From an uncultured Haloferula sp. (GTDB lineage Bacteria > Verrucomicrobiota > Verrucomicrobiia > Verrucomicrobiales > Akkermansiaceae), in NCBI GenBank assembly GCA_965652295.1, contig CBFGTS010000021.1, positions 1 through 60,781 on the forward strand: a stretch of 60,781 bases of DNA, in the 5' to 3' direction. The notes beneath the pieces were generated by a model. That model was not told where the DNA came from. It saw only the letters and a program-made list of their open reading frames with translations, and made no database searches. A program made the translations under genes and the position numbers. The first letter of the stretch is position 1, and every line of letters starts with the position of its first letter. Below, one piece after another: positions 15,570 through 24,794 of the stretch.

Positions 15570-16277
15570 TCAACTCATGGAATCCGGTGAGTCGGACCTG
15601 TCGGAATCCACCCATTTCACGGCATAGCGCATGAGTTCGCTGCCGGTGGCGAGGCCGAGCTTTTCGCGGATGTTGGACCGGTGCGCGCCCACCGTCCTCG
15701 GGCTGATGCCAAGCGTCTGGGCGATCGTTCCGGACGGTTGACCGCGACCTATCAGCTCAAGGATTTCCAGCTCACGGTCGGTCAGGCGGGTGGTGCCGGG
15801 GTCCTTGGCTCCTTGGCCCTTGCCGCCTGCCATCCGTTTCAGAAGCAGGCGGTTCATGCGCGGGCTCAGGTAAACCTCGCCGCTCAGGATCAGGCGCAGG
15901 CCCTCGACGACCTGATGCGTGGCCTGATCCTTCATCAGGTAGCCGTTCGCCCCGGCCTTCAGCGCCCGTTCGGCGTAGAGCGATTCATCATGCATGGAGA
16001 GCACCAGCACCGGTGCCGGAATGCCCGCCGCACGGAGATCCTTGATCAATTCCAGGCCGCTTCCGTCTTTCAGCGAAAGATCGAGGAGGATCACATCGGG
16101 TCCGGCGGAGCGCACCGCATCCACCGCGCCGCGGACTTGGGCGTACTCCCCGACAACCCGCATGTCCGGCTCAAGCGACACGACTTTTGCCAGTCCCTCA
16201 CGCATCAGGGGATGGTCATCGATGACGAAGACGCCGATCAGTTCACCGGATGGCTTTGTGGATGAAACGGAAGACAT
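15570..16277 (-). CDS. NarL/LuxR-family response regulator
   Basis: IDDHPLMREG, ILLDLSL, LSMHDE, GYLMK; HTH LTDRELEIL..ISPRTVGAHRSNIREKL. Confidence 0.94.
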   Translation of the reverse strand: MSSVSSTKPSGELIGVFVIDDHPLMREGLAKVVSLEPDMRVVGEYAQVRGAVDAVRSAGPDVILLDLSLKDGSGLELIKDLRAAGIPAPVLVLSMHDESLYAERALKAGANGYLMKDQATHQVVEGLRLILSGEVYLSPRMNRLLLKRMAGGKGQGAKDPGTTRLTDRELEILELIGRGQPSGTIAQTLGISPRTVGAHRSNIREKLGLATGSELMRYAVKWVDSDRSDSPDSMS

Positions 16278-16288
16278 GGGAAATAGAG

Positions 16289-18952
16289 TTAGGATCTTGG
16301 CTCGGGAACGCCAGGCAGCCGGATGGTGCAGACCACCTGGATGCCCCGCCCGGCCGGCGATTTGCCGATCACCAGCCTGCCACCCAGAGTCTGGGCGCGG
16401 TATCTCATCGAGCGAAGGCCGAGGCCCTCCTTGAGCGCATCGGGCCGCCCGTCGCCGTCGTCCCAAACCCGCAGCACCACGCGGTGGCTCTGGCTGGATA
16501 GCTCGACGGTGATCACCTCCGCGTTGGCATGTCGGGCGGCATTGAACACGGCCTCGCGGGCGATGATGAACAACTGCGTGGCCACCGGCTCGCCGGGCTC
16601 CGGCCCGTTGAGATGGTCCACGAAATCGCACATCACCCCGCCGAACAGATCCGGCACCAGTTCACAGTAGTCCGCCAGCGCTTGGGCCAGCCCTCTTTCC
16701 TGCAGGGTCACGGGGCAAAGGCCGCGGGCGATCTCCCGCGATTGATGGGTGATGCGGTTGATCCGTCCCACCAGCGACTCCACTTCCCCTGCAAACGGGG
16801 AATCGCTCAGGCTCAGTTTTCGACTCAATGCCTGCCCGAGCATGCCCACTCCGCTGAGCTCCTGGCACAGGCTGTCGTGCAGCTCGCGGCCGATCCGCTC
16901 CTTCTCCCGCTCCGCCGCCTCCAGCACGTCCTTCTGCAGCCGCCGCAAGCGCGTCACGTCGTCGGCGAGGACGAAGATCCCCTGCACTCCGCCGTGGGCA
17001 TCAAAATGCGGCACATAGTGGGCACGGTACGCCCGAATGCCGTCGCGAGGCAGGTCCACGGAGATCTCGAAATGCTGCTCCTCCCCCCGCAGGGCGGCCC
17101 GCAGGTGGGGCTCGATCTCGACAAAATTGTCCGGCCCGAAGGCATCCTTCACCTCCCGCCCCACGAACTCGCCGGGCTTCATCTGGAACTCCTCCTCGTA
17201 AAGCCGGTTGAGGAAACGGTAGCGCAGATCCGGATCGACGTAGGCGAAGAGCGCCGGGACGTTGTCCGAAAGCACGCGCAGCTCCTCGGTCCGCGCGTCC
17301 ACCTCCGATTCCAGTATTTCCTTCGCCTCCACCATCATCCGCTCGGCCTTCAGACTCTCGGAAACGTCCTGGATCATCGCGAAATATCCCGCCACCTCCC
17401 CGTCCCGCACGTCCGGAATGAAGTTCACCTCGACGTCCCGGGCCCCTCCGCTGCGGTAGGGAAGACTGCCGCGGTAGGAAACCCGCTTGCCCGCCATCAC
17501 CCGCCGGATGTGCGGCTCCACCCGTGCGTAGGCGTCCTCGCCGGTCACCTCGCGCACCTTCCGACCGATCAATGCTTCGGGCTCCACGCCGAACCACTCG
17601 CGGTAGGCGGCGTTGCAGAAAACGTAGCGACCGTCCGCATCGCAAAGCGCCAGCAGCACCGGCATTGCGTCCGCCACCAGCCGGTAGCGCCGGCGGCTCT
17701 CTTCCAGCTCGCGGACCACCCGGTGCCGCCGCACCCGCTCGTAGATCACGTGGGCCACCGCTTGCAAAAAGTTCACGTCGTCCTGCGTGAACACCCGCTC
17801 CTCCCTCGTGTGGATCCCGAACACCCCCCAAGGCTCCTTTTCCGTGCCGATCACCACGCTCATGCCGCTCACCACCCCGTGGCTACTGAGGAGCTGTGGG
17901 CCGCAGAAACGGGTCTCCTCCTTGAGGCTCCGGACGATGACAGGACCCTTCGACACCAGGGTAAAACTCGCCTGCGAGCCGCTCTCAGCCCCGATCCGGG
18001 ACGTCCCCACCGCCCCCTCCTCCCAGCCCACGCCAGCGAGGAGCAACAGGTTTTTCCCATCCTCATCCAACCGCAGCACCTTCGCCAGCGGCACGTCCAG
18101 CACGCTTGAGCTCAGTTCCGCCGCTTCCTGGCACAAGGCCTCGATGGCGATGTCTCCCAATGCCTTCCGCCCCAGTTCGGCGATCGCAGCATGCTGTCGT
18201 TCACGCGCCGCGATCTGCCGCGCCTGCTGCCTCAGCACGCTGACATCGGAAAACGTGATCACCACCCCGCCGAGTCCGCCGTCGGCAAGACGGTAGGGAC
18301 CGACGCGCCGCAGAAACGCGCGGCCGTCCTCCCGCGTCACCTCCTCCGCCACCACCTGCGCGGATTCCAAGGCCACTCGGCAATCCTCCAGCAGGCCGGC
18401 GTCCGCCAAGCCCGGAGCAACCCGCGCCAGCTCCTGCCCCAGATCTCCGGGCGACAAGCGCACCAGCCGCACCGTGGCCGGGGTGAAGCGACGCAGACGC
18501 AGGGCCGGATCGAGGAAAATCGTCGCGATGTCCGTGCTCAAGAGAAGGTTGTTGAGGTCGTTATTGGCGTGCTCCAGCTCACGGATCTTCTCCTCCAGCT
18601 GCACGTTCACCCCGGACAGCTCCTCATTGAGGACCTGAAGCTCCTCCCAGCTCGCCTCCAGCTCCTCGTTCGCGCTTTGCAGCTCCTCGTGGGAGGCCTC
18701 CAGCGCGGTGCGGGGGGAGACCATCCTGCTATTCGCCAAACGGACGTCGCCGTCCGAGATTTCGAGATAACACGTTTCAGGAAGCACATAAATCCGGCTC
18801 CCCTCGATCCTCGTTTCCGCGCCGAGAGCCGCGACAGGCAGCGGACCCGCGTTCACCAACGCACTCCCCAGCTCCCAAGGAGCCGTCCGCTCCAGCCCCA
18901 GCAGACACAGGGTAAGTCCGTGATCATTCTCCTTGGAGCCACCGCCCGACAT
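16289..18952 (-). CDS. Cytoplasmic PAS/GAF/PAS/PAS HisKA_3 sensor kinase with a CheB-CheR-fusion-type N-terminal remnant
   Basis: EELQSANEEL coil, NNLLLSTDIATIFLD PAS, GAF, two PAS, ERIGRELHDSLCQEL, EAVFNAARHA, GLGL; AGGAGGT upstream of the ATG. Confidence 0.88.
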   Translation of the reverse strand: MSGGGSKENDHGLTLCLLGLERTAPWELGSALVNAGPLPVAALGAETRIEGSRIYVLPETCYLEISDGDVRLANSRMVSPRTALEASHEELQSANEELEASWEELQVLNEELSGVNVQLEEKIRELEHANNDLNNLLLSTDIATIFLDPALRLRRFTPATVRLVRLSPGDLGQELARVAPGLADAGLLEDCRVALESAQVVAEEVTREDGRAFLRRVGPYRLADGGLGGVVITFSDVSVLRQQARQIAARERQHAAIAELGRKALGDIAIEALCQEAAELSSSVLDVPLAKVLRLDEDGKNLLLLAGVGWEEGAVGTSRIGAESGSQASFTLVSKGPVIVRSLKEETRFCGPQLLSSHGVVSGMSVVIGTEKEPWGVFGIHTREERVFTQDDVNFLQAVAHVIYERVRRHRVVRELEESRRRYRLVADAMPVLLALCDADGRYVFCNAAYREWFGVEPEALIGRKVREVTGEDAYARVEPHIRRVMAGKRVSYRGSLPYRSGGARDVEVNFIPDVRDGEVAGYFAMIQDVSESLKAERMMVEAKEILESEVDARTEELRVLSDNVPALFAYVDPDLRYRFLNRLYEEEFQMKPGEFVGREVKDAFGPDNFVEIEPHLRAALRGEEQHFEISVDLPRDGIRAYRAHYVPHFDAHGGVQGIFVLADDVTRLRRLQKDVLEAAEREKERIGRELHDSLCQELSGVGMLGQALSRKLSLSDSPFAGEVESLVGRINRITHQSREIARGLCPVTLQERGLAQALADYCELVPDLFGGVMCDFVDHLNGPEPGEPVATQLFIIAREAVFNAARHANAEVITVELSSQSHRVVLRVWDDGDGRPDALKEGLGLRSMRYRAQTLGGRLVIGKSPAGRGIQVVCTIRLPGVPEPRS

Positions 18953-23140: not shown

Positions 23141-23213
23141 GCGCGGATAGCTCAGTTGGTAGAGCACTCGGCTTTTAACCGATTGGTCCCGGGTTCGAGT
23201 CCCGGTCCGCGTA
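23141..23213 (+). tRNA. tRNA-Lys(UUU), CCA not encoded
   Basis: GCGCGGA/TCCGCGT acceptor stem, GCTC/GAGC D-arm, CTTTTAA anticodon loop, CCGGG-TTCGAGT-CCCGG T-arm. Confidence 0.96.
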
Positions 23214-23720
23214 CTTCCTCTCTTTGGAGGCAGGAAGCTTCCAGCCCAGGGTGCCTCACCCTTATGGACCGGGACTTGAACCCGGGAAGGGTTCGAATGC
23301 GGCCGTCGTCCGTGACGACGATCACTCCCACAAGCGCAGCGAGCCAAACTGGCATGGACGGAGCGAAGCGGAGTCAACCCCGGTCCGCGTACTTTCTCTC
23401 TTTGGAAGCGAGAAGCTTCCATGCCGCCTCGCCTTGCCCTCGTGGACCGGGAGGAGAAGCCGGAAGGGTTTGAATGCTCTCCGTCGTCCATGACGACGAT
23501 TCCTTCCTCGCGAGCGGAGCGAGCCAAACCGGCATGGACGCAGCGCAGCGGAGTCAATCCCGGTCCGCGTACTTTCTCTTTTTGAGAGTTCGAACCTTCC
23601 AGCACAGGCCGTCTCACCCTTATGAACCGGGACGAGAATGCTCTCCGACCCTCGTTGAGGGCGATTCCGACTATCCGAACGAAGTAAGGCTGATCCGCGT
23701 GGACGAAGCGCAGCGGAGTC
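23201..23720 (+). repeat. tRNA-linked tandem repeat, about 3 units of 178-180 bp
   Basis: cccggtccgcgtactt at 23201, 23379 and 23559; shared internal blocks; each unit ends in gcg(a/c)agcggagtc. Confidence 0.9.
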
Positions 23721-23911
23721 CCCCCCGAAAAGCGGCGAATCCGACCAAACCCCTCCCCTGCTTTCTGCGTCGCAAAAAAAGTCTCCGATTCTGAAAACCA
23801 GCCCGGAAAGCTTCGATTGAGAGAATATAAGCAAGTCCGTTTGAGATTTTCAGAGTGATCGGTCGGGGGACCGGTTCTCGGATTCAGGTGAAAGCCGATC
23901 TTGCGGACCGC

Positions 23912-24070
23912 AAAAACAAGAGCGCGCGATTCCGGGGGGACTCGCGCGCTCTGTTTTTCCGCCCGGAGGGAAAGGAACGGCCCCGCTCTCTGGGGGGAGA
24001 TGCGGGGCCTTTCGGGGGAAGCCGGTTGGGGGGAACCGGTGGTGTGTGGGGGGATGAGCTTCCTTTGCTC
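23912..24070 (-). ncRNA. Candidate sRNA with three C-loop hairpins and an intrinsic terminator (module A)
   Basis: Minus strand ACCGGTT-C6-AACCGG, GGCCCCGC(A)TCTC-CCCCCA-GAGAGCGGGGCC, AGAGCGCGCGA-GTCCCCCCGGAA-TCGCGCGCTCT-TGTTTTT; TTGCGG-N16-GAATCT upstream (24104-24077). Confidence 0.55.
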
Positions 24071-24221
24071 GCCCGTAGATTCGCACGATTTCGGCCCGCC
24101 GCAATTCCCTCAGTTGGAGGGGTAGGCTCCGGTTCCCGGAAAATAGGTCGGCATGACCGGCGGTTTGTACGGACACCCCGGAAATCGGGCACCCGTCCTT
24201 TCAACCTGAAGGTGCCTCCGC

Positions 24222-24281
24222 CCTCGCCCACCTGGGGGGCGGTGGACGAGGATCGAGACACACCGGCTGGGGGGGAACCGG
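24222..24281 (-). ncRNA. Candidate structured RNA with two C-loop hairpins (module B)
   Basis: Minus strand CCGGTT-C7-AGCCGG and CCTCGTCCACC-GCCCCCCA-GGTGGGCGAGG; both pair fully (G-U) only on the minus strand. Confidence 0.45.
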
Positions 24282-24544
24282 GCCTCTGAGCTCACACACG
24301 CGCTCAGCGGCTGAGACCCATTCTCGACAAGCCCGCCCAACTAACAACTACGTCATCTGGGATACGCCTTCATGGACACGGGTTCGCGAGCACCCCGAAC
24401 CGCGTGCTCAAGCGCCGATGCCGCTCCCTACTCACGAACGACGATGGGAATGTCCGGCACCGGTCGGCACCCGCACGACGAGCGACGGCCACCCTGCGCG
24501 ATTGCGTATTCGAAATTTGCGGACAAGCCGACGAGGTCCCGCTA

Positions 24545-24648
24545 TCTCCCGCCCCACATCCGACCCCCATCGGATATCCCCCCCACCCCCCATCGACCCC
24601 GATTCTCTCGCATCCCCCATGCAACAGAGGCTCGGGGTCGATTCTTTT
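24545..24648 (+). ncRNA. Candidate sRNA with two C-loop hairpins and a U tail (module C)
   Basis: ATCCGA-CCCCCA-TCGGAT; ATCGACCCCGA...GCAT-CCCCC-ATGC...TCGGGGTCGAT-TCTTTT. Confidence 0.45.
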
Positions 24649-24794
24649 CAGCCCCAAGACCTCCGTCCGTCGCTCTACGTCGCCTCCACCAGCTGATTCG
24701 CGGACCTGAGGACAACCCCGGGGCCGCCGCTGACCAGAACACGTGTTTCTCCTGGCGTCACGTTAGCAGGTGGCACCGACGGCCGCTCCTTTCT

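Follow-up and report, generated by a model that had tools for sequence, protein, structure and literature searches.

Four small RNAs of two complementary kinds, one with runs of G and three with runs of C in their hairpin loops, are predicted from a short locus of an uncultured Haloferula sp. The window (the whole stretch of 60,781 nucleotides that was analysed) is contig C21 of the host genome G000 (4.37 Mb, 63.5% GC). The element is real and conserved, apparently undescribed, and may prove to be a category of its own. The best explanation, with a probability of about 0.5, is that the G-loop RNAs repress C-tract mRNAs by pairing and that the C-loop RNAs are decoys, the whole being a Csr-like regulatory circuit operated by RNA.

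On one side of the locus is tRNA-Lys(UUU) with its trailing repeats, and on the other a convergent gene that ends in a PEP-CTERM-like motif (identified by eye). The repeats are 165-180 nt long and present in 3-4 copies (window 23201-23727), each copy being closed by the tRNA 3' end; we take them to resemble tRNA-linked repeats. The first-pass annotation had found no credible open reading frame in the stretch, and a codon model likewise calls no gene. The locus contains 12 runs of C5+ or G5+ in 750 nt, which exceeds chance; elsewhere in the genome such a number is reached only in a CRISPR array (13) and in a paralogous cluster of contig C3 (12). With 7 sites it is also the largest among the 330 homopolymer-loop hairpin clusters of the genome. 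The cluster in G021, composed of B-like, G-loop and A elements, adjoins the same tRNA and HAD gene as the cluster in the window. A CRISPR array at G000 C8:204500-205680 has a repeat of ~32 nt containing a C5 run and is found beside a cas2-like ORF (by eye). A pair consisting of a PAS/GAF sensor kinase and a NarL-type response regulator is located at window 15570-18952, 5 kb from the cluster (translations, by eye); a link to the palindrome described below is not shown.

The seven hairpins that had been described as C-loop hairpins in three modules (A, B and C) all exist, with the exception that the one at 23913-23958 is not a C-loop of module A. Judged from its homologues, it is the terminator of a separate G-loop RNA on the + strand. 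It folds with 6 G-U pairs on the + strand versus 0 on the other, the changes in the terminator pairs of 20 homologues pass through G-U pairs when read on the G strand, and U tails are found at the ends. BLAST gives homologues of 23862-23970 that occur in the absence of module A, and the module A paralogues terminate at the 23981-24010 hairpin. The folding z-score of the RNA is -4.73 compared with -5.07 for the other strand and is undecisive on its own. The second G5-loop hairpin of this RNA (23857-23876) falls outside the span considered earlier, and the complementary G-loop family, the other half of the system, was missed in that annotation. The CCGGTT-Cn-A(A/G)CCGG motif recurs at 24022-24039 and 24263-24281, and the unpaired ATCCCCCC(C)AC is present in both modules A and C. 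The C-loop strands, given as - for A, - for B and + for C, have better folding z-scores (A -4.96, B -4.25, C -7.71; G-loop RNA -4.73) than the opposite strands (A -2.41, B -0.75, C -4.94), and U tails close the homologues of A and C; module B has no clear U tail.

Table 1. Features of the locus (positions in the window unless another genome contig is given) and one copy of the associated small-protein gene.
Feature	Position	Strand	Remarks
tRNA-Lys(UUU)	23141..23213	+	Rfam; context only
Promoter-like pair TGAAAA ... CGATTG, G-loop RNA	23792..23819	+	by eye
Predicted G-loop RNA	23826..23962	+	approximate; 5' end inferred
G-loop RNA, closing stem			long, G-U-rich
G-loop RNA, first hairpin	23857-23876	+	G5 loop, run 23865-23869
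G-loop RNA, small GAAA hairpin		+	between the two G-loop hairpins
G-loop RNA, terminator hairpin	23913-23958	+	G6 loop, run 23934-23939; then U tail
Predicted C-loop RNA, family A	23965..24070	-	four C5-6 runs (two hairpin loops, two linkers); terminator 23981-24010
Promoter-like region, family A	24077..24121	-	-10 24077-24082, -35 24099-24104; conserved in A paralogues
Near-palindrome, family A	24107-24121	-	conserved in A paralogues
Predicted C-loop RNA, family B	24200..24313	-	GU repeats, C7 and C6 loops; 3' end uncertain
Promoter-like pair, family B	24320..24347	-	putative; -35 24342-24347, -10 24320-24325; common to C3 copy by eye
Operator-like palindrome, consensus TACGCGATYRCGTA	24495..24508	.	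precedes module C
Promoter-like pair, family C (CGGACA, CTATCT)	24520..24547	+	kept in two homologues from G021
Predicted C-loop RNA, family C	24553..24650	+	four C5-7 runs; terminator 24592-24642, C5 loop, U tail
Seven hairpins	23913-23958, 23981-24010, 24022-24039, 24222-24251, 24263-24281, 24558-24575, 24592-24642
77-aa protein gene copy	L004:1245-1475 = G000 C3:58656-58889

In the alignment of homologues the G-loop family is an RNA of the + strand that combines G-U-rich stems with a GAAA/GCGA tetraloop and two G5-6 loops and has a U tail. In a MAFFT alignment of 20 copies, 85.8% of the cells are paired and double changes occur at 17/19 pairs, counts that are inflated by kinship and refer to a structure derived from the same 20 sequences. 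None of 500 shuffles reaches this covariation and slid controls drop to 42-48%. The G loops are near-invariant across the aligned copies. In the three closest genomes the TGAAAA ... CGATTG pair can be recognised by eye ahead of many G-loop copies, and it is likely read by an alternative sigma factor; the host genome has 24 sigma70 region-2 matches.

In a search of 61 genomes, covariance model R1 gave 8 G-loop copies in G000, 8 in G021 and 4 in G032. One of the 8 G000 copies is without the first loop, and an extra match in G000 is the antisense of the window's own terminator. The total for G000 is 9 copies, the ninth being recovered by pattern. The two-loop pattern, with a control giving 4 matches in 251 genomes, was found in 11/11 sampled relatives of the genus (g1), in 4/11 genomes of a second genus (g21), in 1/37 genomes of genus g3 and in 8 genomes of other families; the fold check covered g1 and g21, where the matches listed fold as expected. 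A looser pattern matches 35/35 genomes, but its control matches many too, and the stricter two-loop pattern was used for the counts. Model R3 has matches in 10/35 genus genomes, with both G loops in 7/8 weak hits inspected, and none in 150 genomes of the order (22 candidates scored in each). The next five relatives gave one weak false hit with R1 and none with R2. Blanks from R1, R2 and R3 do not amount to absence, as pattern searches subsequently recovered members from some of those genomes. In a collection of genome contigs 21 matches were obtained, of which 3 are real by R1, in records of Haloferula sargassicola and Haloferula luteola; these may duplicate genomes already sampled and were kept out of the counts. 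Metagenome contigs gave 0 G-loop matches with a narrow pattern, and the 4 matches in viral contigs (one pattern) include no true copy. The G-loop copies are mostly situated between core genes, often at orthologous sites (msrB/MazG-like, topA, UPF0047).

Some elements differ from this general structure. In longer G-loop variants, at G000 C4:171150-171572 (L039) and in G008 (L136), the two-loop core is preceded by as many as four G runs. In a genome of another family (G041 C1:1576161-1576276, L024) a G6-loop hairpin stands ahead of a terminator that has no G loop; this may be a remote relative with one loop. Tandemly repeated units of 66 nt that contain G6 runs (G026 C1:148359-148563, G100 C131 and C302) match the G-loop pattern and look like a different repeat element.

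Ten C-loop RNAs belonging to several families were found in G000, among them three on contigs C11, C12 and C22. Copies of family A number 5 in G000, 5 in G021 and 4 in G032, and in the window the family stands tail to tail with the G-loop RNA. Elements similar to family B are found at G000 C3:59290-59440 and at L013, and the two homologues of module C are both from G021. The C22-type RNA was matched in 32/35 genus genomes and is thus genus-wide. A count of 31/31 from the same search includes two chance matches, L222 and L228, which were dropped. A complete terminator hairpin is present in 28/30 of its fetched loci; at least two C5 runs are found in 27 of these 28 and GU repeats like those of module B in 25. 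The module C palindrome lies upstream of 15/28 C22-type loci. A tail-to-tail arrangement with a C-class RNA was seen by eye at 7/20 G-loop loci, the other 13 being without such a partner. With two patterns tuned on genus g1, no C-loop partner was found in the four g21 genomes that carry the G-loop RNA.

The palindrome precedes the genus-wide C-loop RNA and candidate target genes as well as module C, and is present in 3/36 leaders with multiple runs versus 15/1527 leaders without runs (p=0.007). At G000 C1:172614-172810 (L106) it precedes a single terminator hairpin with a G6 loop, and one G-class element may therefore share the regulon. At G000 C2:13068 (L108) it lies between an ECF-type sigma/kinase operon and a divergent gene with a C6 leader.

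The leaders of G000 are without Shine-Dalgarno motifs, GGAG being found at positions -20..-4 in 6.5% and CTCC in 13.6%; the assembly yielded no 16S 3' tail. The density of C5 in the leaders is three times that of coding sequence. Leaders in samples of six relatives are similar, and C-rich leaders are not special to the expanded clade (G000, G021 and G032). Runs of C5 are rarer in leaders than predicted from base composition (307 versus 494). Leaders with multiple runs exceed the Poisson expectation for both G runs and C runs; enrichment for signal peptides or PEP-CTERM among them was not significant. Three or more C5 runs were found in 7/1787 leaders, three of which were checked for conservation.

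Two genes for secreted proteins have conserved C5-8 runs at their start codons. The first, C7:63450-63896 on the - strand, has a signal-peptide-like start, five C runs and the palindrome upstream, and its product has no Pfam family. Homologues were found in 28/35 genomes, and a C5+ run is located within -30..+24 of the AUG in 28/29 of them, compared with a background of 212/3249 genes (6.5%); the start codons were chosen by a rule independent of C runs, and the relatives compared are kin rather than independent samples. Homologues of the second gene, C1:337422-338141 on the + strand, adjoin those of the first in 18/28 loci. All 17 homologues scored, at loci picked through the first gene, have a C run at the start codon, 15 have at least two runs and 15/17 have the palindrome. 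In a third candidate target, the gene for an M16 peptidase, the C runs are not kept in 5/5 homologues. From the conservation in these two genes, the start-codon C run behaves as a regulatory element in at least one operon with the same putative operator as C-loop RNAs.

The predicted pairing between G-loop and C-loop RNAs has a median of about -8.7 kcal/mol net, opening costs included. As predicted G-loop partners, 8/10 C-loop RNAs rank in the top 0.25% of 3147 mRNA 5' regions, mostly because of their open C6 runs. The C loops are mostly open in the folding model, whereas the accessibility of the G loops is predicted to be poor, with a probability of at most 0.04 for 5 Gs to be left unpaired, since GG is bound by CC; in this model the tight G loops count against easy seeding. 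The flanks of the runs agree between the two classes. A U precedes 84/106 core C runs (background ~39%) and an A follows 35/36 core G loops. In the expanded clade CU-G loops (19/40 versus 1/36) and C-AG runs (14/69 versus 3/106) rise together. Extended complementarity of the flanks is significant in G000 (9.41 versus 8.0-8.3 nt, the paralogues not being independent) and not significant in G021 and G032 (p 0.07 and 0.36). The agreement of the flanks would favour direct pairing over a protein reader.

An orphan protein of 77 amino acids is encoded by 8 gene copies, found only in G000, G021 and G032 among the 61 genomes. Model-confirmed RNAs adjoin four of the copies, and RNA-like elements, recognised by eye, adjoin another two. 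The protein is predicted to be a helical hairpin (pLDDT 95.5). It has no Pfam family, none of the 8 copies has a DUF1127 match at E up to 10, there is no PDB sequence or fold match and no usable Atlas hit, and no copy was found in metagenome contigs. Comparison with 1.84 billion representatives gave 5 hits, four being the already known set and one a repetitive artefact. Identity as a Rop/Rom-like kissing-complex protein was considered and is unsupported, with nothing reaching E<=0.001 and Rop absent among the matches listed. The co-occurrence of protein and RNAs is probably a single evolutionary event, because G021 and G032 are the two closest relatives of G000 by LpxA identity. Unless distant homologues were missed, the protein cannot be a core factor of the genus-wide system. 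As for RNA-binding proteins, Hfq and LSm were not found in G000 (98% complete), and CsrA (PF02599) was found in 0/5 genomes in a search with positive controls. Genes with an RRM domain number 4 in G000 and 3-5 per genome, so that a protein could serve as reader. One of them is divergent from a G-loop copy (G000 C6:125373-125585, L035), an arrangement not seen at the other loci scanned. Integrase genes lie beside one C-loop locus and one small-protein locus, several clusters lie beside tRNA genes, and no transposase was found among the 89 flanking ORFs scanned.

In the preferred reading all four predicted RNAs would be transcribed. Each G-loop RNA would be a two-headed repressor with (C/U)GGGGG(G) loops that seed on sites of the UCCCCCC type, presumably with no need for Hfq, and pairing with the start-codon C run would block the mRNA. 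The C-loop RNAs would act as target mimics that soak up the G-loop RNA. A transcription factor bound to the palindrome would switch on the target operon together with the multi-site C-loop decoys, so that transcription and release of translation would coincide. The logic would be that of Csr/Rsm with RNA in place of CsrA. Both the sign of the regulation and the transcription factor acting on the palindrome are supplied by this model. In the clade of G000, G021 and G032 both RNA classes were expanded and the small helical protein was added. The likeliest reader of the C run is the G-loop RNA, since it combines rigidity, two heads and complementarity with the same spread in the genus and frequent adjacency. 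Against this reading stand the poor predicted accessibility of the G loops, the extended flank complementarity that is significant in G000 but not in G021 or G032, the g21 genomes in which two patterns gave no C-loop partner, the M16 peptidase gene, the excess of multi-run leaders for G as well as C, and the presence of RRM genes. The firmest element, common to this model and to one based on a poly(C)-binding protein, is that the C-loop RNAs mimic C-tract leaders, which is quite probable.

In the protein model, the main rival though rather unlikely, a poly(C)-binding protein such as an RRM protein or the 77-aa helical protein represses the C-tract leaders and is sequestered by the C-loop RNAs, with the G-loop RNAs as anti-decoys or competitors that mask the C runs. 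Variable multi-site C-loop RNAs under a palindromic operator, combined with multi-site leaders having the last site at the start codon, match the Csr/Rsm architecture, there are several RRM genes per genome, and open C loops beside tight G loops would suit a protein reader; yet no candidate tracks the system, as the RRM genes are generic and the small protein occurs in 3/61 genomes compared with genus-wide RNAs, and the matching flanks of G loops and C runs speak for direct pairing. It is improbable that the roles are reversed, the C-loop RNAs being effectors that pair, in the manner of 6C or cuckoo RNAs, with G-rich sites in mRNAs and have the G-loop RNAs as sponges. The conserved mRNA element found is a C run and not a G run, the leaders are poor in both Shine-Dalgarno motifs and G, and the rigid two-loop class is G while the variable multi-site class is C. 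These points stand against a score of -8 kcal/mol or better with C-loop RNAs in 55/3147 5' regions, a weak resemblance to 6C and ar14 far under the Rfam cut-offs, and the precedent of 6C RNA, which binds G-rich single-stranded 5' UTR sites via C-rich loops (PMC6486639).

Two further explanations have very low probability. Terminators or REP-like DNA repeats with homopolymer loops, rather than RNA genes, could account for the copies that follow a gene on the same strand, but not readily for strand-specific G-U covariation, a multi-stem architecture and conserved upstream promoter/operator motifs, nor for loops kept at low sequence identity, and the scan of 89 flanking ORFs gave no transposase. 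Slightly less probable still is an RNA-only toxin-antitoxin or addiction pair, in which a G-loop RNA that blocks many C-rich leaders would be the toxin and its C-loop neighbour the antidote. The tail-to-tail pairs, the clusters beside tRNA genes and the integrase genes would fit such a pair; the orthologous positions of most copies between core genes, the majority of G-loop loci without a tail-to-tail partner and the viral contigs, where one pattern gave no true copy, speak against it.

The Csr/Rsm system provides the closest comparison for the preferred reading. In that system CsrA is titrated by the multi-site decoys CsrB/CsrC and RsmY/RsmZ, which carry the motif GGA. The likeness lies in paralogous multi-site decoys, a palindromic upstream site and repeated leader motifs with the last at the start codon, and C runs recur here in the C-loop RNAs and at the start codons of target homologues (28/29 and 17/17). 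The differences are that a C run replaces GGA, that CsrA is lacking in the five genomes searched, and that an RNA carrying two G loops is proposed as the repressor. In the sRNA sponges SroC-GcvB and RbsZ-RybB an RNA likewise imitates a target and titrates a base-pairing sRNA; these are single pairs and often processed fragments, whereas here both sides are multicopy families with their own predicted promoters and a homopolymer code. By analogy the system would work like Csr/Rsm titration and like the sRNA-sponge pairs while being a member of neither.

The earlier suggestion of RNAs like the cuckoo RNAs or RNAIII, acting against Shine-Dalgarno sequences, fits poorly, because the leaders are without Shine-Dalgarno motifs and C-rich and conserved C runs are found at the start codons of candidate targets; the sponge that had been offered as an alternative is the best-fitting part of that guess. 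6C RNA (RF01066) binds G-rich single-stranded 5' UTR sites through C-rich loops with no chaperone (PMC6486639). It has in common with the present RNAs the C-rich hairpin loops and, as predicted here, G-C pairing without Hfq, but RF01066 scores 23.2 here against a cut-off of 47 bits. The targets of 6C are G-rich ribosome-binding sites (PMC6486639), whereas the C-loop RNAs resemble the mRNA leaders rather than their complement, form several families and are accompanied by a G-loop class. The cuckoo RNAs carry CCUCCUCCC in each of 2-4 hairpin loops (PMC4615179). Cuckoo RNAs, CcsR and ar14 with CcaF1 are similar to the C-loop RNAs in having 2-4 hairpins, constant C-rich loops, variable stems, several copies and a gene for a protein of ~70 amino acids nearby (PMC4615179, PMC8034643). 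They differ in that the loops here are pure C5-7, with CCUCCUCCC absent among the C-run contexts listed, in the ar14 score (17.9 against a cut-off of 58.8 bits) and in the small protein, which has no match to DUF1127, the family encoded beside CcsR-type loci, and is often encoded convergently, not by a co-transcribed leader gene. The multicopy FopS sRNA family of Bacteroides, with the RRM protein RbpB, resembles the system in that its sRNAs are paralogous and dispersed, that they pair close to start codons and that the lineage possesses RRM proteins; the accessible part of that work describes no homopolymer loops or complementary decoy class, and there the protein RbpB antagonises FopS (PMC11697453).

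In an Rfam scan at gathering and E-value thresholds the window gave the tRNA only, the best sRNA scoring 23.7 against a cut-off of 49.5, and 10 homologous loci compared with Rfam 15 gave 0 matches. The family of paralogous multi-loop RNAs first proposed, with no earlier description, is supported by homologues within and beyond the genome, by covariation and by the lack of an Rfam match. No publication was found on these RNAs among those on small or structured RNAs of Verrucomicrobia, Haloferula or Luteolibacter or on sponge RNAs with C- or G-rich loops; supplementary motif catalogues or subscription papers could hold them.

The two new predicted RNA classes bear on the control of translation in the Verrucomicrobia examined here, in which Hfq, CsrA and leaders of the Shine-Dalgarno type were not found. 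Along with them come an mRNA element that can be recognised in leaders, candidate targets identified by gene, and an operator-like palindrome that these targets share with C-loop RNAs. A genus-wide, RNA-only, Csr-like global switch on a homopolymer code, with two-headed G6-loop RNAs as CsrA, multi-site C-loop RNAs as CsrB and start-codon C6 runs marking a secreted-protein regulon, in bacteria without Shine-Dalgarno sequences, Hfq or CsrA, is proposed tentatively, its full extent being somewhat doubtful. If the G-loop RNA is the repressor, the titration logic of Csr would have been rebuilt from RNA alone, and the two classes would give a compact, programmable repressor/decoy pair for a phylum with few genetic tools.
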